Below are positions 1,063-57,587 of a stretch of DNA of 64,000 bases, piece by piece. The notes beneath the pieces were generated by a model. The model saw nothing but the letters and a program-made list of their open reading frames with translations, had not been told where the DNA came from and made no database searches. Numbering within the stretch: position 1 is the first letter of the stretch; each line of letters opens with the position of its first letter. The position numbers were made by a program, and so were the translations under genes. The DNA comes from Squalus acanthias (Eukaryota), in NCBI GenBank assembly GCA_030390025.1, contig CM059431.1:130884001-130948000 (forward strand). The letters are read 5' to 3'.

Positions 1063-1333
1063 CTTTCCTGGTTCCTGTGATCAGATAAAATGATGTAGCC
1101 AGCCTCCCAAGAGTCTCTGGCTTTTGTGAAGGGTGAGCGGGTCCCTTGACCTCGTCTCACGTATAAAGACATGTATACTGGATAGACTTTAACTATTCCT
1201 ATCACTAACTCCCATCATTTTACCATTTACCTTTAAAATTAAACTACAAACTTACCAAACTTAAGAACACTATAAACTTAAAACTTATCCTAAACTTAAC
1301 TGTACAGCGCCGCCCGTTACCAGGGCGGCCTAC

Positions 1334-2375
1334 CTAAATTCTGCGAAGGCTGCCACGAGCTTTTCCCAGTGGCGGGGGGGCACTGACCCCTTCCTTTGAT
1401 CTGCCGCAGCCTGTCGTCGCTGCGCTGGGACTGGGATCTCCCTGGGCTGCCTTGAACTTACGCCTGGGGGTGTACGAGGGTTTTGGCCACAACTTCCTGG
1501 GCTGGGGTGTCCGACTTGACCTACGGAGGGCTACCTTGGGCAAGATTTCCAGGACCGACGGACCGGGAACCGAGACTTCCACCGTCACGGCCTGTGGTCC
1601 CACCACAGCCGCTGGCTCTGTCTCCCCTGGCTCCGCCCCCCTGGGCTCGGGATCTGCGGTTTCCGACTCCACCCTACTTGTCTCTACAGTAAGTGGATCT
1701 TCACTCACAATCCCTATCTCCCCTATGCTTGGGTCAAGGGCGGAACCTCCGTCCTCCGAACCCACCACCTCTTAGACCGGGTCACTACCTTGGTCGAGCT
1801 CTCCGAGCTCTTCCTCATCTGAATCCCAAGACCAAGAAAAGATCCTACACTTTTCCAGAATGTCCTCTCCCCTCACGCAGGCTGCTTTACCCTGCCTGTG
1901 TGCCCTGCGGTTCTACCCGGGGCTGAGAGTCCCCACTCGCAGGTTTGGCCCCTCCCCTATGACAGGCCACCGCCCCTGCTTGTGCCTTCTGTGAAATCTC
2001 GCCTGCTGGAGGCTGAGGATTTCTATTCTGTTTTAGTTTGGGCAACTCTGCTACCATGGCTTGCAACTGCGGGGTGGTGAATTCCCCCGGGGTTGTTGAG
2101 CAAACCATCCCTCTGGCTTTGGATAGGGCTTGGGTCAGACCTTTTATCCTTTCCTCACAGGGCCCATGGTTTAAATCCTCATACTCTCGGCTCCTGGCTA
2201 CCCTGTAGGCTGCCTTTATGTCTCTAAGCTGCCCTTCTAGCCCATCTATTTTCCCCATTAAGCGGGCGTTCTCCTCCCGCAAGGCCTGCTCTTTTAACCT
2301 GGCCTCCTTACAGGAGGCCCACTCCTGTGCGTGTCTTTCAAGGGGACACAGGTAGGCAGGCTGCGCCGGTTCCAG
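1334..2375 (-). pseudogene. ORF2 of the LTR element (Gag-paralogous coiled-coil module plus acidic/Pro-rich and basic tail), disrupted
   Basis: Continues in frame directly after the gag TGA. Covers track ORFs 1887..2282 and 1334..1768, which are linked by one frameshift (~1890) and one stop (~1773). No protease, RT or integrase core motifs seen. Confidence 0.65.
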
Positions 2376-4175
2376 TCAGAAGTCTGGGTTGTATGGGGCT
2401 GTTGCTACCTTTCCGTGTGAGGTCATAAGAGACCGCATGGCTCCTAACATGGACTCTATCGCATCGGGATGGATAGGCACACCAGCTCCTTTCTCAGAGA
2501 CAGGCGCTTGGGTTCGGACTGCGGGAGCTTTTTCCCTGGAGTCCTTCCAGGGATTCCTACAGTTTTTACGCCAGTGACCTGTCTTCCCGCACCCGTAACA
2601 AACACCACTGGTTTGTGGGGCGCGATTTCCCTCCTGATGCCACTCTTTCTGAGCCGGAGCTGCGGGCTTTGCCTCATGCACCTTTCCCTTAAGTGGACGC
2701 GCTCCCATGCTCCTAGTGTTCTGATACCCTATGGTGAGTCGATTCAGGACAGATTCCTCTGTTGTCTCGGGGTTAGTGGGATCAAACAACGCTCTGGCCT
2801 GCTCCCTGACGGCTGGCAAGCTGTTGGCTACCATGCACCTGAGCCAATGAGCTTTCCCGGCGCCGTCCAGATAGATGCGCTGTGGCGCACCTTGGCAGCT
2901 ACGCTGATATACTGGCCACAGTCTGTCGGCGAAAACCCGCGGGGGTTCTCCCTCCATCTGTACGGTCTGACCCAATCTGACGAACGGACCTTCGTCATCC
3001 GCCCCTAACACTTCTAGGACCTCGTCCCGTAAATCCCCATCGCTTTTATTTCCCTTCTTGCTCTCGTCGGAGAGACACTGAAGGATCGAGCTATCTAAAG
3101 TGAACAGCAACATCTTGGTCTTTTCCTCGTCGTCGCAGCCATTAATTGCTGCGGTCTGTTCTACTTCTCTAAAATGTACGGAAGGGTCGTCTGACTCGGA
3201 CAGCTTCCGTACATGGCTAATCATTGCTCTCAGCTGGTGTGAGCTGTGGGGCAATACAAGTTGGTTCAGGATATCCCCGTCTGCCCCATTTGCCCCATTC
3301 GGGCCTCTCTTATGACCTCGGACCGGACACATCGGTCCCGGTCTCGACGCTACCTCCGGGGATTGTCCTACCTCGGGAACCTTCTTCTCTATTTCCACCA
3401 CCTCCTCCCTTACCCAGGTTGCCGTATAGCTGGGTGGCGCGGAGGGCATAGTGGTATATACCTCTTCTGCTTTTTCCGGTAGGGATTTTGGGAATTCCCT
3501 ACCCACCTGTGGCTGGCTCGCTGACGGGCTGATGAGACACACCAAGCCGTTTGCCTTACTCAGGGACTCCCTCAGGTTCTCTATCTCCCTCTGGCAAACA
3601 CTGTGGTCGGCTCTCTCATGCCTATCCTCGAGGGCCATCTTGTATGCCGCCCTAACTCCCTTCAAGCTTTCTTCCTAAGCTTTTATCTGGCTAGCTAGGC
3701 GGATACACCGTTCTCTAATCCTTCCCTCGCTTAATTTTGCTTCTGTGACCTGACATTCTAGGTAATCAATTTTAGCCTCGTGGTGGTTGGCTACTATTTG
3801 GCGTTCCTGATGTAACGCATTCAATGATGCAATGAGTTTCTGTCCTCCCGTGACCTTTTCCTCCATCTCAGTTTCCAATTCCCTGATCTGAGCTGCCTGT
3901 GCTGCAATGACCTGGTCCGAAAGTTGGACTTGCTTCTTGTAGCACATCAGCCAGACCGCTTTCTCTACCGACTTCTTATGATCTTTACTACCTGTCCATT
4001 TGATGGCGGCGTCTAGCGGACGCTTATCCATCAGTAGGTCACTTATCCACCTTTTGGTTAAGTTAACCTTCCCAAACACATAGTCGGCTACCCTCTCATC
4101 CATCACATTTCACCTATTCAAACCAGGGTCTAAAACATTACTCTCCTGCTGCCAATGTCCTGCCGCGGTCGCCAT
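2376..4175 (-). pseudogene. gag: Gag polyprotein, 600 codons in one frame with two internal stops (TGA 4112-4110, TAG 3677-3675)
   Basis: Track ORFs 3675..4106 and 2376..3665 share a frame with ATG 4175. N-terminal coiled coil, capsid-like motifs (DPSVHFREVEQTAAINGCDDEEK; QMEGEPPRVFADRL), and CX2CX4HX4C knuckle CYGCGKTGHWRKNC at 2600-2559. Confidence 0.9.
4157..4174 (-). promoter_or_regulatory. Primer-binding site complementary to tRNA-Arg(TCG)
   Basis: Minus-strand TGGCGACCGCGGCAGGAC. The plus strand GTCCTGCCGCGGTCGCCA matches the 3' 18 nt (including CCA) of vertebrate tRNA-Arg(TCG) as recalled. Confidence 0.85.
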
Positions 4176-4179
4176 TTTC

Positions 4180-5948
4180 TGTAAGGGGGCATGTCTCAGA
4201 CGGTGCTGGTGCGAGGTTAGGCCTTCGTTGCCTAATACTATTGCTTGCTCTGGTCTCCAGCCAGCCTTTTTGCAATAAGCACCTGTGAGTGGTTCGACCC
4301 ACTCGCCCTTACGGTTCTAACACTGGACTTAGATGCAGGGAGCAGTAATGCAGGGAAAAACTCAAATAGACCCGGTTGAATAGTACGAAATGGAAATCTT
4401 TATTGCATGGCGTCTAAAATCATGAAATACATGTCATAGGCGCAAATCAAAGAGAGTACAAGTATACATACATTCATAAAGCTTGGTCTATGGAAATGGA
4501 GAACACACGGCACATTATACCTTAACCTTATTAAAAACCACCCTCCCGTAACACTACCTACACTACGTCTAGATTTGTAGGATCGTAAAACATGCTCACC
4601 ACTCGTGTTACTTCGGAGATTTTAAAGTGGGGCACTCAGCTCGTTTCGCTGCAGCGCCTGACTGTCACGTGTTTGGAAGGGTCTCTGCACCCCACTTGTT
4701 TACTTTTGCTGCTGCGAAAAGCAGGCCAGACTCCCTGTTGTCATGAAGAACTCGACGGAACTCGGATAAAATTCAAAGAAGAGTCTTCCTGTGTTCAACA
4801 CAGGTTGTAGTCGGTAGAACTCAAAGAAGAGTCCTGTATTTATATTTTCGGGCGCGGTCGGGGTTTACTGACCGTGGCGGCACGTGGAATTTCTTCTCGT
4901 CTCCTCGGGCCTCCGGGTCCAGACACCGTTTACCGACACTCGGGATGGTGTACCCTGTTACTTGCCCTTGTCGGGGCGGCTCGTACCGATTGAGCTCCAC
5001 CCAACACTTGAATAACTGACCAGTATGGCTAAGAGTCAAGAGTCAACAAAGTCCAGAGAGAAAATCGAGAGCCCACAAGTCAAGTGAGTTCATGAAGAGG
5101 CAAGCGAATAAGAGACCGATGGACATTTGTTCTCTATAGTTATAGTGATGTGTCCGCTTATCTCCCGCTCAAATCTTAATGTTTGTCCTTTGTGTAATAT
5201 TTGGCGCTCAAAACTCCCAGCATGGGGCGATTATCTTTTTTAACGGGTTTCGGTAGCACCTGAAACTGGCCAACTATCCGTTAATGTTTTCCCCATTGTT
5301 GGACCAGCCAGGATGTGTATGGATCGTCTCCCTGACTGGTTTTGGGGCCCCCCGAATACTTGCTTAATCACCCGTCGATGTCTCTCTCATTGTAGAGCCG
5401 GGGGGTATTTGTGTATTGATGTGTCTGGATGGGCCTTCGATTGCCCAGTACAATGATCCTTACTGTGCATAGGAAAATGATTCCAGCACTTATATCTTTG
5501 CTATTGTTCCAAATGCAAACGGGTTGCATCCTGTCTTTATCAGTGTTTACCGAGTATGATCCAATCTTATACTGAATGTATATTCAACGCCATCTTGTCT
5601 GCCCACTGTGTTTCTGGAAGCTTCTGCCACGATGCGCGGTGGCCATTTTACAGGCTTCTGTGTCCTTTATTATCAGGACAGCATTTCGTTTAATAAAACT
5701 GATCAACGAATCTGCTTCTCTTATGTTATTTTGAATCGCGATAATTGCGAAACTTTACAATTCCTAGCTTTTTCCTCCCAAAATGTATTACTTCATACTT
5801 GTCAACTTGAAATTACATCTGCTAGCTGTCCGCCCATGCTGCTAACCCATCTATGTCTTTACAGTCCTTCTAGCTGTTTGCCAAGTTCCCTCCTTTTGTG
5901 TCATCAGCAAATTTTGAGATTTATGCCCAAATCCAAATCGCCTATACA
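4180..5948 (-). repeat. 5' LTR (~1.77 kb)
   Basis: On the minus strand it begins TGTATAGG (5948) and ends CCCTTACA (4180), 5 nt before the PBS. TATAAATA at 4844-4837 and AATAAA at 4404-4399. The outer boundary is inferred because no second LTR is in the window. Confidence 0.75.
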
Positions 5949-8436: not shown

Positions 8437-9525
8437 AAACAACAATAACTTGCATTTATATAGCGCCTTTAACATAGTAAAACGTCCCAAGACGCTTCAC
8501 AGGAGCCACAGTACCGAAACTGCTCTTATCAAAGTTACAAGTGACATCCTATGTGACTGTGACCATGGTAAACTATCCCTCCTCATCCTCTCGACCTTTC
8601 TGCAGCCTTTGGCACTGTTGACCACACCATCCTCCTCCAATGCCTCTCCACCGCCGTCCAGCTGGGTGGGACTGCATTCGCCTGGTTCCATTCTTATCTA
8701 TCCAGTCATAGCCAGAGAACCACCTGCAATGGCTTCTCTTCCCGCTCCCGCACCGTTACCTCTGGTGTCCCCCAAGGATCTTGGCTCCCTCCTATTTCTC
8801 ATCTACATGCTGCCCCTCGGCGACATCATTCGAAAATGCAGTGTCCGTTTGCACATGTACACTGACGACACCCAGCTCTAACTCACCTCCACCTCTCTTA
8901 ACCCCTCCACTGTAAATTGTTACACTGCTTGTCCGACATCCAGTATTGGATCAGTAGAAATTTCCTTCAACTAAATATTGGGAATACCAAAGCCATTGTC
9001 TTCAAACCCCACCACAAACTCCATTCCCTAGCCACCGACTCCATGCCTCTCCCTGGCAACTGGCTGAGGCTGAACCAGACTATTTGCAACCTTGGTGTCG
9101 TATTTGAGCCCAAGGTGAGCTTCCGACCAGATATCTGCGCCATCACGAAGAGCGCCTATTTCCACCTCCGTAACATTGCCCAATTCCGCTCCTGTCTCAG
9201 CTCATCTGCTGCTGAAACCCTCATCCATGCTTTTGTTACCTCTAGATTTGACTATTGCAATGCACTCCTGGCCGGCCTCCCATTTTCCACCCTCCATAAA
9301 CTTAAGGTCACCCAAAACTCTGCTGCCCGTATCGTAACTCGAACCAAGTCCCATTCACGCATCACCCCTGTGCTCGCTGGCCGACATTGGCTCCTGGTTA
9401 AGCAACGCCTCAATTTTAATATTCTCATTCTTATTTTCAAACCCCTCCATGGCCTCGCCCCTCCCTATCTCCTCCAGCCTTGCAACCCTCCAAGATATCT
9501 GTGCTCCTCCAATTTTGGCCTCTGG
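8437..9525 (+). mobile_element. L2-clade LINE fragment (RT and C-terminal region), preceded by an inverted L2 tail at 8437-8503
   Basis: HSTETALIKV, LFLIYMLPLG...HMYTDDTQL, ETLIHAFVTSRFDYCNALL; frameshifted. Confidence 0.9.
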
Positions 9526-11221
9526 GTATGTATTTTATAAATTTCTTTGCTGTCAGTACAGATGCTATTCATACCTTAAAGCAGTACCCAATTTCTCATC
9601 AGGGGCTGTTTGTAAAAGCTACTGTAATTGTGCGCAGCCTAAATAGCACCTATGGGTATCCCTCAGGGCATCCTTCTCTAGGTGCAGGTTCTGGAGAAGA
9701 AAGAAGCAGATCAGAAAAGGCATGACAGACAGATGTGGTTGCAGGTTAGTCTCTCAAGAAGGAGTGGCCCTTATGCCACTGCTTATGTATAAAGGGCAAG
9801 GCAATCATATCTGGATATGTCTGAGGATATCCACACATAGAGATGACAATCGCAAAGAGGCCATGACAAAACAGTGCCATCTCCTACAGATCAACTTCGG
9901 AATTACTTCATTGCTTTGTCAGTGGCTGTCAAAGTGACTATTGCCTTGAATTTTTATTCCACTGCATCCTTCTAAGCAACAGCAGGAGACATCTGTTAAA
10001 TCTCACAACCAATGATCTTATATAAATTTCCCTATGTAAAATAGGCAGCAGCGTGAGAGAACTCTGCAATTTTACCATCTGTTGAATTCCCCAAAGTCCA
10101 GGGTGTTAATGCTGACACACATATGGCCCTACTCCTAATACTACTTCCTCCACGAATCGAAAGCAATTCAATTTCATGAATGTGCAGCTGGTCTGTGACT
10201 ATAGACACAGAATCCTGCACATTAGTGCTGCTATCCTGGTAGTTGTTATAATGTTATTATTTTACAAGCAATTGATGGTGCTAAAATTATTTCAGGGGCT
10301 AAGAAGACTAAATGGATGGCTATTAAGGGAGCAATGCCTGCCAGGGGATCACTGACACCCTGACACATTACCCCATTGGACAATTCCTAAATAAAAATAG
10401 AGTGAGGCACACGCAGCTAACAGAATATCAGCATGTTAAAGCAAAGGCTCAGATGCATGGACTAATCATGGGAGTCCAAGATTATTGTGCGCTGCTGTGA
10501 CCCACACAGCTTCGTCCTGCAAAGGGACAATGGCATGGAGCAGAAAGAAGAGGTAGTCTCAACCAGCAGCAGAAGAAGGCAACCAATCATTCACTCACTA
10601 AGAAAATTAAGCAGAAACTAAAAGATTAACCTTCAGTTAAGTACCTTTAATGTCCAGTGCACAACAGTCATCTGCATATGCAGCCAATACCTCTGGCTAA
10701 AAAGGCAATCGTCACTATTGCCCACAGCCTTATATTTGGGCCCATGAATACAACAGCATTTCTCCCCATCGATCTTGCTGTGCTTTACCCCAAATGAACA
10801 GTCATGTACGTAGGCCTATCGGTGAAGTCAAATGTTATTAATCATTCCAATGTGTGATGCAAATTATTCTAACCATGAACCTGGGGGAAGCCTCTGACTT
10901 TATACTCCTCCCTTTTTGCCTCATGCTCAGAATCTCCAGGGCCCATTCCTTCTTCCTGATCTGGATGCATTCTGACTATTATGTGCGGCTTTCTCTTGCA
11001 AACATGTGTTGGAATAAGAATATGATAGATGTGATTTACCCAAGTGTTCAACCCAACCTTATGTGAGCTGCTTGCTGCATTTCAGGGACCACAGAACAAA
11101 TACATTGAAATGGCAGCAATATAGAATGCCTTAGTGAAACGTGGGCATACCTGTGCTTTTGGAAAGTATATGAACAGTTACCAGAGTGGTGTGCATTCTC
11201 CCCGTGTGAAATTTATAGTGA

Positions 11222-26940: not shown

Positions 26941-28564
26941 GGGATAGAGTTTCCGCTTTGGGCACAAGCGACGATCTGATTGCAAATTGCGCCCAAAATT
27001 GCTCTAGTTTTGAGAAGTGTTTTTTTACCTCATGTTTCTGCTCAAACTCATTTGCATATTGGTGAATGCAATATCTGCAATGAACCAGCGCAATCCGGCA
27101 GCGTTTTAGAATGCAATTTTTTAAAATAATTTTTTGCTAAAAAAATATTCCTTGCTATATTTCAGTGTGGTAACTTGGTGCACTTTGACTAATACAGCTG
27201 AAAATGGGGTTATCACAAAAAATAAGTATTTTAATCAGAATGTCTATTCCACCACCTGCAAGTAACCCGATTTTAAATAACTGAAAATAACTTTAAAAAA
27301 CTATACGGACCATTTACCAGTTATATTGGTGTACAGTAAACAGTTTCTTAGTAAATTAAAAAATATATATATTCAAAAGCTTTTAAAATATGGGGGAAAA
27401 ATTCAGTCGCGCCCCATTTGGGGCGCAAATATCGGCCGGGCGCAAAGATTAGCGCCTGGTGCTAATTATCGCCACCGACTGCAAACTTCACTTTTATCGC
27501 CCCTGGAGGTGATTGCAGCGCTAAATCAGGCGCTTCACACCTGTCTCAAGGCGCAAAGGCTGAGGAGCGAGGCGCTACCTCAGAGCGCTGGCGAAGCTCA
27601 TGTAATGTCAGTCAGCAATGGAACACACACACAATGGCATGGGCCAGTTCTTAAAGGGGATGGTTAATCTTGCTTTCCATCCACATCCTGCTCATTGCAG
27701 CCATGAATCTCGGCCTGGAGAGACCTGCACATCAAATCTGCTGGAAAGAACAATGGAGAGTACCAGGCCAAGAGCTCAGAGTGCAGCCCCCACAGTCTCT
27801 GCTAAATCGATACAAGGAATGGCAAATCAAAATGAACCTGCAAAGTGCTGCTCAGTACCCAAAACTCCTTCACCCAACGTTGAATCTCTCCAGAAGTCTC
27901 TACCTCTCTCTCTCAGAATGCGTAGTTCAAAAATGGCACCAACAATAAAAGGCAGGAAGCGGTCACCTTTAAATAGCGCTCCCCCTTTCCCTTCATGACT
28001 GCAGAACGCTCCCCTCAACCTGTCGTTGCTAGCGTCAGGCGGTAAGGCAGGGGGCGCCACTCAATATCCGCTCCGGGGCGATACCGGGGCGTTGCGCACT
28101 CGAGTGACGTCATGATCTGCCGGCGCAGGAGATCGTGGCGGTAGTGTTTAGCGCCGCCGCAAAATGTCTAGTTAATTTCGCGAGCGGCGCAAACTTCGCC
28201 GCGCCCGGGCGCTAGATGCTTTGCGCCCCATTAGCGCCCTCTTAAGGCGCTAACGGGAGGCGCAACCAACTGAATTTTCCCCCCCAAAAGAACCAGCTTA
28301 ATTTTTAGAGCCTCCTCAAAGGCCCGCAAATGAGGGCAATTAGCAGAAACTCCCAATGGTGATTGATACAATATGGGGGCATAGCCAGTTTTGTGGCCAG
28401 CTTCTTGCACAATGTTTTTTAAACAAGTGCAAAAGATCGTAGAAACTCGATTTGTGCTGATCGTAATTTGCGCTTAAATTTCCACGATCTTTTGTGATCG
28501 TTTCATCAATTTCAGGCCAATTACACCAAAAAAAAATAGCGCAACCAAGCACAAAATCCAGGCC
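26941..28564. mobile_element. Older Harbinger-type MITE hosting a younger MITE
   Basis: Imperfect TIR-like ends GGGATAGAGTTTCCGCTT / AAGCACAAAATCCAGGCC. Confidence 0.5.
27392..28284 (+). mobile_element. ~890 bp Harbinger-type MITE, copy 1
   Basis: TIR GGGGGAAAAATTCAGT / ACTGAATTTTCCCCC; near-identical to 41526-42417 and 43020-43912. Confidence 0.9.
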
Positions 28565-30729: not shown

Positions 30730-32356
30730 AGATACACACAGAGACAGCGAGAGTGAACCACAGATACACACAGAGACAGCGAGAGTGAGCCACAGATACA
30801 CACAGAGACACCGAGAGTGAAGCACAGATACACACAGAGACACTGAGAGTGAACCACAGATACACACAGAGACACTGAGAGTGAAGCACAGATACACACA
30901 GAGACACTGAGAGTGAACCACAGATACACACAGAGACACTGAGAGTGAAGCACAGATACACACAGAGACACCGAGAGTGAACCACAGATACACACAGAGA
31001 CACTGAGAGTGAACCACAGATACACACAGAGACACTGAGAGTGAACCACAGATACACACAGAGACACTGAGAGTGAACCACAGATACACACAGAGACACT
31101 GAGAGTGAACCACAGATACACACAGAGACACTGAGAGTGAACCACAGATACACACAGAGACACTGAGAGTGAACCACAGATACACACAGAGACACTGAGA
31201 GTGAACCACAGATACACACAGAGACAGCGAGAGTGAGCCACAGATACACACAGAGACACTGAGAGTGAACCACAGATACACACAGAGACACTGAGAGTGA
31301 ACCACAGATACACACAGAGACACTGAGAGTGAACCACAGATACACACAGAGACACTGAGAGTGAACCACAGATACACACAGAGACAGCGAGAGTGAGCCA
31401 CAGATACACACAGAGACACTGAGCGTGAAGCACAGATACACACAGAGACACTGAGAGTGAACCACAGATACACACAGAGACACCGAGAGTGAACCACAGA
31501 TACACACAGAGACACCGAGAGTGAACCACAGATACACACAGAGACACCGAGAGTGAAGCACAGATACACACAGAGACACCGAGAGTGAACCACAGATACA
31601 CATAGAGACAGCGAGAGTGAACCACAGATACACACAGAGACACTGAGAGTGAACCACAGATACACACAGAGACACTGAGAGTGAACCACAGATACACACA
31701 GAGACACCGAGAGTGAACCACAGATACACACAGAGACACCGAGAGTGAACCACAGATACACACAGAGACACTGAGAGTGAACCACAGATACACACAGAGA
31801 CACCGAGAGTGAACCACAGATACACACAGAGACACCGAGAGTGAACCACAGATACACACAGAGACACTGAGAGTGAACCACAGATACACACAGAGACACT
31901 GAGAGTGAACCACAGATACACACAGAGACAGCGAGAGTGAGCCACAGATACACACAGAGACACCGAGAGTGAAGCACAGATACACACAGAGACACTGAGC
32001 GTGAAGCACAGATACACACAGAGACACTGAGAGTGAAGCACAGATACACACAGAGACACCGAGAGTGAACCACAGATACACACAGAGACACTGAGAGTGA
32101 ACCACAGATACACACAGAGACACTGAGAGTGAAGCACAGATACACACAGAGACACTGAGAGTGAAGCACAGATACACACAGAGACACTGAGAGTGAACCA
32201 CAGATACACACAGAGACACCGAGAGTGAAGCACAGATACACACAGAGACACTGAGCGTGAAGCACAGATACACACAGAGACACTGAGAGTGAAGCACAGA
32301 TACACACAGAGACACTGAGAGTGAACCACAGATACACACAGAGACACCGAGAGTGA
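30730..32356. repeat. 32 bp minisatellite, ~51 copies
   Basis: Unit GAACCACAGATACACACAGAGACACTGAGAGT with a few recurrent variants. Confidence 0.97.
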
Positions 32357-41299: not shown

Positions 41300-42805
41300 A
41301 AAATAACAACAGAAAACGCTGGAAAAACTCAGCAGGCCAGGCAGCATCCGTGGAGAGAGAAACAGAGTTAATGTTTCAGGTCGAAGACCTTTCGTCAGAA
41401 CTGGAAAAAAGCAGGAAATGAAATAGATTTAAAGCAAGTATAATGCTGGGAAAAGGGGGAGGGGATGAAAGAACAAAAGGCAAGGTTAGTGGTGGGATAG
41501 AAAGCAGGAGAGATTAAGAGACATAGGGGGGAAAATTTAGTTGGTTGCGCCTCCCGTTAGCGCCTTAAGAGGCGCTAATGGGGCACAAAGCATCTAGCGC
41601 CCGGGCGCAGCGATGTTTGCGCCGCTCGCGAAATTAACTAGACATTTTGCGGTGGCGCTAAACACTACCGCCACGATCCCCTGCGCCGGCAGATCGTGAC
41701 GTCAGTCGAGTGCGCAATGCCCCGGTATCGCCCCGGAGCGGATATTGAGTGGCGCCCCCTGCCTTACTGCCTGCCGCTAGCAACGACAGGTTGAGGGGAG
41801 CGTTTTGCAGTCAGGAAGGGACTGGGGGAGCGCTATTTAAAGGCGACCGCTTCCTGCCTTTTATTGTTGGTGACATTTTTGAACCACGCATTCTGAGAGA
41901 GAGAGAGAGAGACTTCTGGAGAGATTCAACGCTGTGTGAAGGAGTTTTGGGTACTGAGCAGCACTTTGCAGGTTCATTTTAATTTGCCCTTCCTTGTATC
42001 GATTTAGAAGAGAGTGTGGGGGCTGCACTCTGAGCTCATTCCCTGGTACTCTCCATTGTTCTTTCCAGCAGATTTGATGTGCAGGTCTCTCCAGGCCGAG
42101 ATTCAAGGCTGCAATGAGCAGGATGTGGATGGAAAGCAAGATCAACCCTTCCCTTTAAGAACTGGCTGGGGCCATTGTGTCTGTGTTCCATTTCTGACTG
42201 ACATCACATGAGCTTCGCCAGCGCTCTGAGTTAGCGCCTCGCTCCTCGGCCTTTGCGCCTTAAGACAGTTGTGAAGCGCCTAATTTAGCGCTCTAATCAC
42301 CTCCAGGGGCGATAAAAGTCAAGTTTGCAGTCGGTGGCGATAATTAGCGCCAGGCGCTAATCTTTGTGCCCAGCCGATAATTGCGCCCCAAATGGGGCGA
42401 TACTGAATTTCTCCCCCATAAAGAGATAATCAAGGCAAGAGGAGGTGTTAATGTGACAGGTTGAGGCTAGATGAAGTGTGAACTGGGCAGGCAGAATGAA
42501 GGACAGCTGCCAGCTTCTGGGAGGGGAAAAAAAAGCCAAACAAAAGAGTGGATGAAAAAATAAAATTAAAAAATATATACATGTGATAGGGGCCAAGGTT
42601 ATGATCTGAAATTGTTGAACTCGATGTTGAGTCCAGAGGGCTATAGGGTGGCTAAATGAAAGATGAGGTGCTGTTCCTCGAGCTTACGCTGAGCTTCCGT
42701 GGAACAATGTAAGAGGCCGAGGACGGTGAGGTCAGAGTGGGAGTGGAGTGGAGAATTAAAGTGACAGGCCACCGGGAGCTCGGGGTCCCCCTTACGGACT
42801 AATTC
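41300..42805 (-). mobile_element. Penelope-like element 3' part, hosting MITE copy 2
   Basis: PLE terminal motif with a hammerhead core at 41398-41374; flanked by the direct repeat GCATTTTTATGT. Confidence 0.75.
41526..42417 (-). mobile_element. ~890 bp Harbinger-type MITE, copy 2
   Basis: TIRs and 3 bp TSD ATA/ATA. Confidence 0.92.
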
Positions 42806-43019
42806 GCATTTTTATGTTGTGCCTTTCACAACATCAGGATGTCGCAAAGTGCTTTACAGCCAATTAAGTACTTTCGTAATGTAGGAAATACAGTTAGGGT
42901 CTGGGGCTGGGCCAGCAGTTAGGGGCTGGGGCCAATGAAGTACTTTTGTAATGTACGAAATGTGGCAGTTTATGCACAGCATGGACACACAAACAGCAAT
43001 GTAACAATGCCCAGATAAT

Positions 43020-43912
43020 GGGGGAGAAATTCAGTATCGCCCCATTTGGGGCGCAATTATCGGCTGGGCACAAAAATTAGCGCCTGGCGCTAATTATCGC
43101 CACCGACTGCAAACTTGACTTTTATCGCCCCTGGAGGTGATTAGAGCGCTAAATTAGGCGCTTCACAACTGTCTTAAGGCGCAAAGGCCGAGGAGCGAGG
43201 CGCTAACTCAGAGCGCTGGCGAAGCTCATGTGATGTCAGTCAGAAATGGAACACAGACACAATGGCCCCAGCCAGTTCTTAAAGGGAAGGGTTGATCTTG
43301 CTTTCCATCCACATCCTGCTCATTGCAGCCTTGAATCTCGGCCTGGAGAGACCTGCACATCAAATGTGCTGGAAAGAACAATGGAGAGTACCAGGCAAAG
43401 AGCTCAGAGTGCAGCCCCCACAGTCTCTGCTAAATCGATACAAGGAATGGCAAATCAAAATGAACCTGCAAAGTGCTGCTCAGTACCCAAAACTCCTTCA
43501 CACAACGTTGAATCTCTCCAGAAGTCTCTCCCTCTCTCTCTCAGAATGCGTAGTTCAAAAATGGCACCAACAATAAAAGGCAGGAAGCGGTCACCTTTAA
43601 ATAGCGCTCCCCCTTTCCCTTCATGACTGCAGAACGCTCCCCTCAACCTGTCGTTGCTAGCGTCAGGCGGTAAGGCAGGGGGCGCCACTCAATATCTGCT
43701 CCGGGGCGATACTGGAGCGTTGCGCACTCGAGTGACGTCATGATCTGCCGGCGCAGGATATTGTGGCGGTAGTGTTTAGCACCGCCGCAAAATGTCTAGT
43801 TAATTTCGCGAGCGGCGCAAACTTCGCCGCGCCTGGGCGCTAGATGCTTTGCGCCCCATTAGCGCCCTCTTAAGGCGCTAACGGGAGGCGCAACCAACTG
43901 AATTTTTCCCCC
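43020..43912 (+). mobile_element. ~890 bp Harbinger-type MITE, copy 3
   Basis: TIRs and 3 bp TSD AAT/AAT. Confidence 0.92.
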
Positions 43913-53511: not shown

Positions 53512-56500
53512 TCAGTGGGGGGAGATTGCAGATGGTCTTGCAGGACGAGCTCGAGCAGCTCTGGGCCTAGAAGACCCGGCTATAGACTGCACCACCTTGG
53601 CATAGGCGACAGCAGTCTGGGCTGCCGAGCTAACAGGCAACAGCAAGAGCAATGGCGGAGTGGCAGTGGAGGAAGTACAAATGCTGTCATCCTGAGAGAG
53701 GACAACAGGTTCGTGCTCCACGGAGCCACTGCCACTCTCCTGGGGCGGCGCCTCAGCAATCCTAGTAATCTGCTGGAGGACGGATTGCTGGATTGCTGTG
53801 AGACCCTGCAAGCCCCTTTCCACACTGGTAAACCCAGCCACGATGGCAGCAGTCTGAGCTTGTGTGGCAGCAACCTGACCTTGCGTGACAGAAGTCTGAG
53901 CTTCCACTGCAGCACTCAGATGTTGGGTCACTTCCGCTTGTGCTGCAATGGAAGCTGAGACATCGCCCATCAGACCCTGCATCATGGTTGGGTCCACAAG
54001 TGCACTAATGGCGTTACCCATCTCTTCCATCCTGGAAATCATGGGCTCCAAGCTCCTTGCAAAGCACTATGCAAGGTTGGAACCGGACTCCTTGACAGTG
54101 GCAACAGACTCTCTGGCAGGCCTGCCAATGCACCAAGCATTTCTGTGTGCACGCCCATCACCCTTCTTCTATAGGCCGCCCCATCAAAGTCCTCTTCTGA
54201 GTCCTCTGCAGCAGAACCCATGTGCGACCTCGCCCTCCAGGGAGCTGGCACTTGTGCTACCCTTGCCCCTGCCCTGGCTACAGGCCACTCGTGCCCGGTG
54301 ACTCACCACGTGCAGATCCGCCTCTATACGACCGTCTGAAGTACGTGCAGTGTCAGTTTCTGAGCTGGTTCCTGCGAGTGTGAGATCGAGTGACAGTGTC
54401 TCATCTTCTGAACCACTCACCTCTTGCTCTTCCTGCACTGGATGGGCAGGTTGGAGTTCCTGAGCATCTGAAAAGAGAAACGAACAAGGTTAGGGTTGTG
54501 ATGAGGTATGGGGGGAAAGCAAGATATCCATGCTTACACCATCAGCAGCTTCTAAGTAAGAAGAGATTGCGGACTGAGGGGAAGTGGGATGTGAGAAGGA
54601 AAATTAGATATGAGCATAGTGTCATCTTCAATGGTGTCATCCTCGCCAATTGACACAGTCTCAGTGACGGCCCCTCCACTAATGTCAAGCACGGTCTCTT
54701 CCAGCTGGGTCAGGATCTGCAGGCTTGCCCCCCACCGTCGGTTAACTGTTGCTGTCTACGGTTATGAGACACCTTGCCCTGCAAGAGAGAGGGAAGTGTG
54801 TCAGTGAGTGTGGTGCAATGTGTTTGGGTGAAGTGTGTCAGTGAGTGTGGTGCAATGTGTTTGGGTGAAGTGTGTCAGTGAGTGTGGTGCAATGTGTTTG
54901 GGTGAAGTGTGTCAGTGAGTGTGGTGCAATGTCTTTGGGTGAAGTGTGTCAGTGAGTGTGGTGCAATGTGTTTGGGTGAAGTTTGTCAGTGAGTGTGGTG
55001 CAATGTGTTTGGGTGAAGTGTGTCAGTAAGTGTGGTGCAATGTGTTTGGGTGAAGTGTGACAGTGAGTGTGGTGCAGTGTGTTTGGGTGAAGTGTGTCAG
55101 TGAGTGTGGTGCAATGTGTTTGGGTGAAGTGTGTCAGTGAGTGTGGTGTAGTGTGTTTGGGTGAAGTGTGTCAGTGAGTGTGGTGCAATGTGTTTGGGTG
55201 AAGTGTGTCAGTGAGTGTGGTGCAATGTGTTTGGGTGAAGTGTGTCAGTGAGTGTGTGTAATGTGTTTGGGTGAAGTGTGTCAGTGAGTGTGGTGCAATG
55301 TGTTTGGGTGAAGTGTGTCAGTGAGTGTGGTGCAATGTGTTTGGGTGAAGTGTGTCAGTGAGTGTGGTGCAGTGTGTTTGGGTGAAGTGTGTCAGTGAGT
55401 GTGGTGCAATGTGTTTGGGTGAAGTGTGTCAGTGAGTGTGGTGTAGTGTGTTTGGGTGAAGTGTGTCAGTGAGTGTGGTGCAATGTGTTTGGGTGAAGTG
55501 TGTCAGTGAGTGTGGTGCAATGTGTTTGGGTGAAGTGTGTCAGTGAGTGTGGTGCAATGTGTTTGGGTGAAGTGTGTCAGTGAGTGTGGTGCAATGTGTT
55601 TGGGTGAAGTGTGTCAGTGAGTGTGGTGCAATGTGTTTGGGTGAAGTGTGTCAGTGAGTGTCGTGCAATGTGTATGGGTGAAGTGTGTCAGTGAGTGTGG
55701 TGCAATGTGTTTGGGTGAAGTGTGTCAGTGAGTGTGGTGCAATGTGTTTGGGTGAAGTGTGTCAGTGAGTGTGGTGCAATGTGTTTGGGTGAAGTGTGTC
55801 AGTGAGTGCGGTGCAGTGTGTTTGGGTGAAGTGTGTCAGTGAGTGTGGTGCAGTGTGTTTGGGTGAAGTGTGTCAGTGAGTGTGGTGCAATGTGTTTGGG
55901 TGAAGTGTGTCAGTGAGTGTGGTGCAATGTGTTTAGGTGATGTGTGTCAGTGAGTGTGGTGCAATGTGTTTGGGTGATGTGAGTCAGTGAGTGTGGTGCA
56001 ATGTGTTTAGGTGAAGTGTGTCAGTGAGTGTGGTGCAATGTGTTTGGGTGAAGTGTGTTTCAGTGAGTGTGGTGCAATGTGTTTGGGTGAAGTGTGTCAG
56101 TGAGTGCGGTGCAATGTGTTTGGGTGATGTGTGTCAGTGAGTGTGGTGCAATGTGTTTGGGTGAAATGTGTCAGTGAGTGTGGTGCAATGTGTTTGGGTG
56201 AAGTGTGTCAGTGAGTGTGGTGCAATGTGTATGGGTGAAGTGTGTCAGTGAGTGCGGTGCAATGTGTTTGGGTGATGTGTGTGTCAGTGAGTGTGGTGCA
56301 ATGTGTTTGGGTGAAATGTGTCAGTGAGTGTGGTGCAATGTGTTTGGGTGAAGTGTGTCAGTGAGTGTGGTGCAATGTGTTTGGGTGAAGTGTGTCAGTG
56401 AGTGTGGTGCAATGTGTTTGGGTGAAGTGTGTCAGTGAGTGTGGTGTAGTGTGTTTGGGTGAAGTGTGTCAGTGAGTGTGGTGCAATGTGTTTGGGTGAA

Positions 56501-57587
56501 GCGTGTCAGTGAGTGTGGTGCAGTGTGTTTGGGTGATGTGTGTCAGTGAGTGTGGTGCAATGTGTTTGTGCGAAGTGTGTCAGTGAGTGTGATGCAATGT
56601 GTTTGGGTGAAATGTGTCAGTGAGTGTGGTGCAATGTGTTTGGGTGATGTGTGTCAGTGAGTGTGGTGCAATGTGTTTGTGCGAAGTGTGTCAGTGAGTG
56701 TGATGCAATGTGTTTGGGTGAAGTGTGTTTCAGTGAGTGTGGTGCAGTGTGTTTGGGTGAAGTGTGTCAGTGAGTGTGGTGCAATGTGTTTGGGTGAAGT
56801 GTGTCAGTGAGTGTGGTGCAATGTGTTTGGGTGAAGTGTGTCAGTGAGTGTGGTGCAATGTGTTTGGGTGAAGTGTGTCAGTGAGTGTGGTGCAATGTGT
56901 TTGGGTGATGTGTGTCAGTGAGTGTGGTGCAATGTGTTTGGGTGAAGTGTGTCAGTGTGTGTGGTGCAATGTGTTTGGGTGAAGTGTGTCAGTGAGTGTG
57001 GTGCAATGTGTTTGGGTGATGTGTGTCAGTGAGCGTGGTGCAATGTGTTTGGGTGAAGTGTGTTTCAGTGAGTGTGGTGCAATGTGTTTGTGCGAAGTGT
57101 GTCAGTGAGTGTTTGGGTGATGTGCCTGTCAGGGTTGAACTGCTGGCAGTGTGTGCAAGGTGTGAGATGTCGGTATTAGGCTTGCAGCAGTGGTTGGTGT
57201 GTGAGGGTGAGGTGAAGCTATGACTGTGAGGTATGAGTCGTGATTGATAGAGATTGTTGGTAGGTGAGTGATGGGGGTGTGGTGTATTGAGCAGTGTCTG
57301 AGTCTCGTGGTGCAGTGGCGGGAGACGGCTTTTGAAGATGCATTCACTCACCTTGAACACTCGTGAGGTCATTGAACTTTATTCAACACTGGATCCAGAT
57401 CCTCAGGGTAAGACTACTGGCAGTGACCGCTTCCGCTATCTGCTCCCACTGCCTTCTGACTGAGTCTGGAGGGCCTCCCGGTCCTCTGCGGGTGTACGAC
57501 CTGTCTCCACTGTTCTTCCCCCCACACTAAGGCCCCTAGTGCTGCGACGGAGAACCTTGGTGCCCTTTCTCTGCCCTGTTGAGCCAT
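53512..57587 (-). pseudogene. Harbinger Myb/SANT-like DNA-binding protein gene (spliced, degenerate)
   Basis: ATG 57587 MAQQGRERAPRFS; donor AAG|GTGAGT at 57351; acceptor TTGCAG at 54779; exon 2 GKVSHNRRQQQLT; downstream coiled-coil ORF 53512..54051. Confidence 0.75.
54793..57120. repeat. 37 bp minisatellite, ~63 copies
   Basis: Unit GAAGTGTGTCAGTGAGTGTGGTGCAATGTGTTTGGGT. Confidence 0.97.

Follow-up and report, generated by a model that had tools for sequence, protein, structure and literature searches.

A pol-less endogenous retrovirus family of Squalus acanthias that retains gag and env and is probably complemented by a pol-bearing helper

Non-autonomous elements of the Arabidopsis Athila group, which are plant Ty3/Gypsy elements, carry gag and an env-like gene but no pol, and they offer a possible precedent for such a combination being kept going by recombination. 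Defective endogenous retroviruses (ERVs) with a swapped central segment include the D-type in the C/D pair of bovine ERVK[2-1-LTR] (PMC10924933), recKoRV, which is paired with KoRV-A (PMC5696478), and ETn, which is paired with MusD (PMC10089650). In the available text of these reports, the central segment of a competent ERV is replaced by a piece of an old retroelement, the LTRs and flanking parts of gag and env are kept, complementation occurs in trans, and the two forms recombine, all of which resembles what we observe or propose here. However, the bovine D-type lacks intact genes and recKoRV has truncated gag and env, whereas the family described here has whole gag and env genes that carry a signal of purifying selection, and its swapped block lies in frame as a readthrough ORF, unlike those of the bovine D-type and recKoRV. 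The retention of whole gag and env together with the in-frame insert sets the family apart from these central swaps. According to the available text of the report on BHIKHARI (10.1101/2024.03.25.586437), this recently active, pol-less fish ERV also has an intact coiled-coil Gag and is presumed to be complemented by a partner; but its Bik-2 form has gag and neither pol nor env, and Bik-1 has a single ORF, whereas env is kept here, and its helper was not found in the zebrafish reference genome, whereas here the helper is abundant. Known defective ERV partners lose genes or keep gag alone, and here only the enzymes have been dropped. In the literature searched, with most subscription journals, Repbase and Dfam lying outside its scope, we found neither a pol-less vertebrate ERV family that keeps gag and env nor a description of shark F-type ERVs of such a kind, and the available text of PMC9040795, PMC6001957, PMC8672886, PMC8278194, PMC12193657, 10.1101/2021.11.23.469661 and 10.1101/2023.10.26.564294 does not describe the family.

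The window analyzed is a stretch of 64,000 nucleotides (nt) of the S. acanthias genome (contig CM059431.1, positions 130,884,001 to 130,948,000), and all features of the provirus are on its minus strand. The preliminary description of the window had noted that only 1.3 kb separates gag from env, with no protease, reverse transcriptase (RT) or integrase core evident in between, and had proposed a non-autonomous gag and env partner in a bipartite system, a pol-replacement derivative, or an element with pol placed downstream of env. The gap is indeed short, with 1,313 nt between the gag TGA (2378-2376) and the env ATG (1062), and scanning 1063-2375 for motifs in all six frames yielded none of D(T/S)G, YxDD, HHCC or the integrase core in coding orientation; a single DTG and a single LPQG are antisense. 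Pfam likewise recovered no Pol family in the spacer of the window, nor in a natural copy in which the entire frame that follows gag (ORF2, below) is unbroken. The spacer nevertheless retains remnants of pol, namely a 12-codon Pol leader at its start and an integrase C-terminal tail later. To the left of the window lie the remainder of env, a 3' UTR of approximately 400 nt and the 3' LTR, and no pol; since just these 400 nt separate env from the LTR, a pol placed downstream of env is excluded, and the pol-less element contains neither RT nor integrase at any point from one LTR to the other.

The provirus of the window is complete at 9,071 nt, with 1,580-nt LTRs, a 4-nt target duplication (GAAT) and an 18-nt primer-binding site (PBS). 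The 5' LTR (4180-5759) begins and ends in TGT...ACA and is 1.5% diverged from the 3' LTR. The PBS (4157-4174), which starts 5 nt past the LTR, is complementary to the 3' end of a host tRNA that we take to be Arg-TCG; the complementary sequence, whose motif has 460 matches genome-wide, occurs in tandem arrays, where it comes after the T-loop motif of a tRNA. Such arrays, with a period of 1,623 nt and carrying the probable primer tRNA gene, occupy G000:C26:38.99-42.22 Mb. Over the region corresponding to 4175-5759 of the window, the LTRs of the family are long (1.56-1.69 kb) and rich in indels, and the 5-nt gap between LTR and PBS is fixed in 17 of 17 copies. The gag gene (2376-4103; 575 codons in open copies) encodes an N-terminal coiled coil, a capsid region and one CCHC knuckle, with a PSAPPSY motif (3446-3426) that is presumably late-domain-like, and is interrupted in the window by a premature stop (3677-3675). 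The 5' half of env (1-1062) continues to the left of the window; the gene has 783 codons in open copies and encodes what looks like an F-type ectodomain, with an RQRR cleavage site (84-73) and a possible Ig-like head in its N-terminal part, and the env of this copy is broken outside the window. Two observations concern this N-terminal part: weak Ig matches at approximately 540-860 on the minus strand (Pfam Ig_3, E 0.61; JAM-A, E 0.95), and a Y-x-CMW motif that also occurs twice in the Env of L048, a snakehead retrovirus (SnRV) entry.

What has become of pol is apparent from a complete gag-pol-env sister form, hereafter the helper. In one helper copy (L041), which was covered from gag to env and had been chosen for the likeness of its Gag to that of the window, 3,745 nt of pol (protease, RT, tether, RNase H and integrase) stand in place of 449 nt in the window (1954-2402), and the two elements are approximately 95% identical on both sides, in gag and in env. 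This pol matches the Pfam families RVP, RVT_1, RT_RNaseH, RNase_H, Integrase_H2C2 and rve. All 144 scored RT matches are 99-100% identical to L041, many of them in frames of 1,495-1,496 aa, and approximately 43 of 97 scored Gag matches (counted by eye) end a few residues short of the Gag C-terminus of the window. Short motifs spanning the junctions were counted across the genome (3.7 Gb): those for the two junctions of the pol-less form gave 313 matches (up to two mismatches) and 555 (up to three), those of the helper gave 473 and 574, and controls gave 0, so that pol-less sites number at least 555 and helper sites at least 574. Of 4,031 candidates, the 40 that most resemble the spacer were scored, and each of them was colinear across it (40/40). 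The cis elements shared by the two forms were judged on a motif joining the LTR end to the PBS, which is exact at L041 and at other helper loci and has 2,987 matches in all; six further helpers were covered in their integrase tails. As a side observation, these 2,987 matches compare with approximately 1,100 copies assigned to the two forms, and the remainder may represent helpers of greater age or forms with other deletions.

The hundreds of pol-less junctions exclude a one-off deletion that arose at this locus after insertion, and the pol-less element is a family inserted separately at hundreds of sites. Its structure (LTRs, PBS, whole gag and env, no enzymes), its copy number and the existence of a helper with the same cis elements are all directly observed. 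The non-autonomous gag and env family and the pol replacement of the preliminary description are one and the same thing. Judging from these sequences, the pol-less element is very probably a non-autonomous, trans-complemented form of a young ERV family that recombines with its helper.

The 449-nt block, which is absent from the helper, comprises the last gag codons, the TGA, the Pol leader and a Gag-like fragment, and both of its joins are in frame. ORF2 opens in frame after the gag TGA and runs for 346 codons (369-370 with a 69-nt duplication that adds an in-frame stretch of coiled coil) to the stop that ends the pol of the helper. Its parts, in order, are the in-frame TGA and 12-codon Pol leader (LEPAQPAYLCPL; 2340-2378), a stretch (2088-2306) that by sequence match is paralogous to the end of the coiled coil in Gag, a fragment resembling the first capsid helices (1983-2087; weak match, E 0.003 and 0.06), and an acidic, proline-rich integrase C-terminal tail common to the helper (1334-1953), with which ORF2 ends. 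A non-coding spacer, also common to the helper at 90-98.5% identity, precedes env (1063-1333). ORF2 is hidden in the window because its frame is broken in this copy, by a frameshift at about 1890 and by a stop at about 1773. The leader of copy L023 matches that of the helper in 9 of 12 residues, with five purely synonymous codon differences, and the tail, which makes up the last 620 or so coding nt of the gag-env spacer, is 93-97% identical to that of the helper. At E 5e-12, the coiled coil of the block is 36% identical to that of its own Gag; its identity is 45-46% with two shark proteins and 52% with a sister family, and it keeps the CxxxIxxLxxxLxKAxG end; the capsid-helix-like fragment abuts it without the Gag linker of approximately 95 aa. 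Over the 340 nt of the sister family that were sampled, the block resembles this family more than it resembles the helper (at the stop, 84% over 49 nt; in the coiled coil, 52% of amino acids), which places its origin in another lineage, although its exact donor was not found in this 340-nt comparison.

The sister family belongs to the same virus group (G000:C20:65965667-65967460 and 69 other loci; L060 and L061), is 42-45% identical to P0085 and has the same stop-plus-leader motif. In P0084, a whale-shark gene model, a Gag-type coiled coil (45% identical to the block) is fused with an Env N-terminus (36% identical to the Env described here); this may mark a similar compact element or a splicing artifact of the model. 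Named relatives of Gag and Env come from Scyliorhinus, Rhincodon, Rhinoraja and Pristiophorus. No relative of ORF2 as a whole was found among proteins of 190-606 aa or among metagenome contigs, ESM Atlas matches to ORF2 were all under 0.9, and its first 155 aa gave five Gag-like matches. Identification of ORF2 with the smc gene of lokiretroviruses was rejected: the label precedes gag ('smc-gag-pol') and therefore fits the N-terminal coiled coil of Gag and not an ORF that follows gag. Some pol-less loci have frames of 401-409 aa, with 136-163 nt extra between the junction and env, which fits a longer helper tail type. The integrase tails of the helpers themselves (L041-L047) are acidic, proline-rich and fast-changing, with 77-94% DNA identity and in-frame duplications, while the helper RT protein is 99% identical.

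We propose that the pol-less form had a single origin, in which template switching would have exchanged the pol of the helper for a 449-nt block of a related viral lineage, with the reading frame preserved from the gag TGA through to the integrase tail. Its RNA would then be packaged in particles that receive Gag-Pol from helper copies, and would be reverse-transcribed and integrated in trans by the helper enzymes. Recombination with helper RNA would keep gag, the tail, env and the LTRs current while the old block persists, and the pol-less element probably still made Gag and Env. Sequence evidence indicates that the two forms recombine, which is what co-packaging predicts, though as evidence for it recombination is indirect. 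In a tree of 20 pol-less and seven helper tails, six helpers fall outside and L041 lies deep among the pol-less copies; starred branches force two changes for this placement, and none of 200 bootstrap trees had just one change. The 69-nt duplication, present in six copies, needs 5-6 changes on the gag, LTR and env trees, but a tandem duplication of this kind can arise or vanish repeatedly. Linkage, however, decays only modestly with distance (r2 from 0.31 to about 0.19).

Selection was examined in 20 pol-less copies of 10 kb, picked by likeness to the spacer, by comparing the nonsynonymous/synonymous counts (N/S) of variants common to at least two copies with those of private variants. The gag gene (shared 114/98, private 177/87, p 0.003) and env (63/79 against 233/136, p 0.0001) are under purifying selection among pol-less copies, with only the Gag coiled coil and the 3' half of env significant as sub-regions alone. 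It should be noted that this signal may stem from helper lineages and have entered the pol-less copies through recombination, and hence is no proof that pol-less copies supply Gag or Env. No such difference appears in ORF2 (61/23 against 122/53, p 0.66), in its parts (block 13/5 against 54/16, p 0.76; tail 48/18 against 68/37, p 0.32) or in the LTR control (p 0.75), although the ratio in the block has little power because only 18 variants there are shared. In ORF2 the frame is kept, with no sign of amino-acid constraint. It is open in 11 of 19 copies, compared with 6 of 18 for gag and 3 of 16 for env; stops common to several copies number one in gag and none in env or ORF2, and apart from a C run approximately 15 codons before its end, ORF2 has no shared frameshift. 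For comparison, the non-coding LTR, spacer and 3' UTR (13, 20 and 17 copies aligned) have 43 shared frameshift-length gaps in 2.26 kb, these controls being AT-rich and indel-prone. The multi-copy indels of the block, of 69, 138 and 3 nt, are all in frame, and one low-depth deletion of 236 nt is not.

We tentatively take these results to mean that the frame of ORF2 matters and its sequence does not, a reading that we hold as quite possible rather than probable. Ribosomes that read through the gag stop would end at the normal pol stop, which could spare the RNA nonsense-mediated decay or avoid a harmful Gag fusion. Readthrough shields reporter RNAs from decay, according to the available text of PMC5360307, and such stabilization could explain why a frame stays open while its protein is not conserved; with more than 3.5 kb of 3' sequence after the ORF2 stop, protection from decay would therefore be partial. 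The stop reads UGA-CUA in the helper and UGA-CUG in the pol-less form; UGA-CUA(G) is a known readthrough context in the part of PMC13517186 available. No unusual structure of the kind expected of a readthrough stem-loop was found after either stop (z -1.7, -1.4 and -0.3). An open frame without sequence constraint behind a readthrough stop would suggest that translation itself matters for the fitness of retroviral RNA.

It is also possible, and a view that we take seriously, that ORF2 is open by descent only, because one join happened to fall in frame, the block is GC-rich and poor in indels, and helpers renew the tail, and that the element is a plain defective parasite. The neutral N/S of ORF2 agrees with this, as do the tail common to helpers and the low diversity of the block (3.3%, compared with 4.9-6.5% in gag), a diversity that is lowered in ORF2 since copies were picked by spacer likeness. 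However, mere descent sits poorly with the in-frame state of both joins and of all three multi-copy indels of the block, and with the absence of any shared stop among 84 shared ORF2 variants. A third reading, which we consider rather unlikely, is that ORF2 yields a working Gag-ORF2 readthrough protein whose extra coiled coil and capsid helix, carrying the integrase tail with them, co-assemble with Gag and aid packaging of the pol-less RNA or dampen the helper. The persistence of the frame over copies that differ by about 5%, the retained end of the coiled coil and the additional coiled coil supplied by the 69-nt duplication would all suit such a protein, but neither block nor tail shows amino-acid constraint, two of four public sequencing runs have a 138-nt in-frame deletion within the block, and no whole-length relative was found.

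A more far-reaching view is that the block is a cassette that replaces pol and can be carried from genome to genome: it would have originated in a sister lineage of greater age, reached members of the current family with several types of tail through recombination, and stayed in frame because readthrough from Gag into ORF2 is of consequence. Rather than plain parasites, the elements carrying it would be contributors of Gag and F-type Env that borrow enzymes, persisting at about 1:1 with the helper over the long term across several related host species; we regard this as doubtful. The block is covered in four of four public sequencing runs compared, which bear four different organism labels and may come from close relatives; in these runs one contig bridges the join of block and tail, and loose ends of the other form occur at both joins.

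The preliminary description had also envisaged that the pol-bearing partner might lack env, which would make the pair a reciprocal two-part virus in which the pol-less form gives Env (and Gag) to an env-less, pol-bearing partner. This arrangement is very improbable, despite the roughly 1:1 ratio of the two forms (555 pol-less, 574 helper) and the purifying selection on env among pol-less copies, either of which it would accommodate. L041 carries env, and at least 41 of the 66 helper integrase ends listed on C1-C9 are followed by an exact env motif no more than 10 kb downstream, a figure that is a floor because only exact matches were counted. The env motif has 1,027 matches in the genome, close to the total for the two classes together (1,129). 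With env present in the helper, the copies checked do not support a reciprocal two-part virus, although approximately 1,800 of the 2,987 LTR-PBS matches fall outside both counted forms and could include env-less ones. The pol-containing elements with matching LTR and PBS for which the preliminary description suggested a search are present, and they have gag and env in common with the pol-less form as well. A defective form matched in number to its helper and represented by hundreds of datable copies lends itself naturally to asking whether defective genomes act as cheats or as cooperators.

The copying of one deleted provirus through segmental duplication in the host, or an assembly artifact, can be set aside as having next to no likelihood, since the few tandem or paired matches (such as six at a spacing of approximately 6.4 kb on C3, and L030) contrast with flanks and 4-nt target duplications that differ from copy to copy, with matches spread over many chromosome-size contigs and with the block present in four of four independent runs. 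Both LTRs were in view in 17 copies; the target duplications were exact and distinct in 13 of these, and the paired LTRs were 0.7-2.9% apart (median 1.5%). Hence the pol-less junction recurs at independent insertions. The tandem junctions mentioned above lie at G000:C3:64285879-64317984, and L030 continues into a second PBS as a tandem provirus with a shared LTR. Two further pol-less-type copies (G000:C1329:582545-583840 and 659410-660705) have gag within open frames of 2,070 and 1,798 aa.

The viral affinity of the family is mixed. Of 12 viral records compared with the RT of the helper, SnRV matches best, at 43% over 255 aa. Support for a grouping with SnRV in the RT trees, which had no labeled lokiretrovirus RT, is too low (40/27) to place the family, and we file it under neither SnRV nor the lokiretroviruses. 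Helper RT has the PTVA and LPQGFH-SP motifs, the same as SnRV, and does not have the PLSR and PFG-ANSP/SNSP motifs of four lokiretrovirus RT rows, so that motifs compared by eye favor SnRV (available text of PMC7947760). This comparison weakened the lokiretrovirus assignment that had been the first reading. Four peptide words from the top RT matches were not found in the available part of the PMC7947760 supplement, and the top Pol matches are automatically named NYNRIN-like. Likeness to SnRV and class III elements, as far as the text available from PMC2717909, PMC8278194, PMC12193657 and PMC6001957 goes, extends to the coiled-coil Gag, the single zinc knuckle, the in-frame stop between gag and pol and the TGT...ACA ends; however, target duplications are of 4 nt here and 5 nt in XtERV-S, and compared with the SnRV clade the LTRs are much longer and there is no room for 3' accessory ORFs.

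On the other side, the F-type Env, the RXKR-like site and the coiled coil ahead of the capsid recall lokiretroviruses, of which the available text of PMC7947760 records none in six chondrichthyan genomes; the dual RNase H of the helper (tether plus RNase H) is a further likeness, but is common to all retroviruses and not diagnostic. Env looks F-type and related to the F proteins of Mononegavirales, the top ESM Atlas match being a Fusion_gly cluster (0.94, 206 shared features) and the Pfam match to PF00523 reaching only E 0.03. A single-sequence fold of Env was unusable (pLDDT 34), and a PDB sequence search with Env returned only JAM-A (E 0.95). With SnRV Env there is a colinear 19% match (E 1.3), with an hhalign score equal to that of the reversed control. 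That an RT resembling that of SnRV occurs together with an F-type Env lowers the value of such an Env as a marker of lokiretroviruses.

Elsewhere in the window, there are decayed LINE-like RT-tail frames, recognized by eye, and an unassigned frame of 184 aa (8438-9540 and 53512-54066). An 850-nt repeat is present in three copies (41571-42419, 43018-43866 and 27389-28238), two of which form a 96% identical inverted pair 598 nt apart. Two minisatellites occupy 30730-32356 (32 nt, 51 copies) and 54793-57112 (37 nt, 62 copies).
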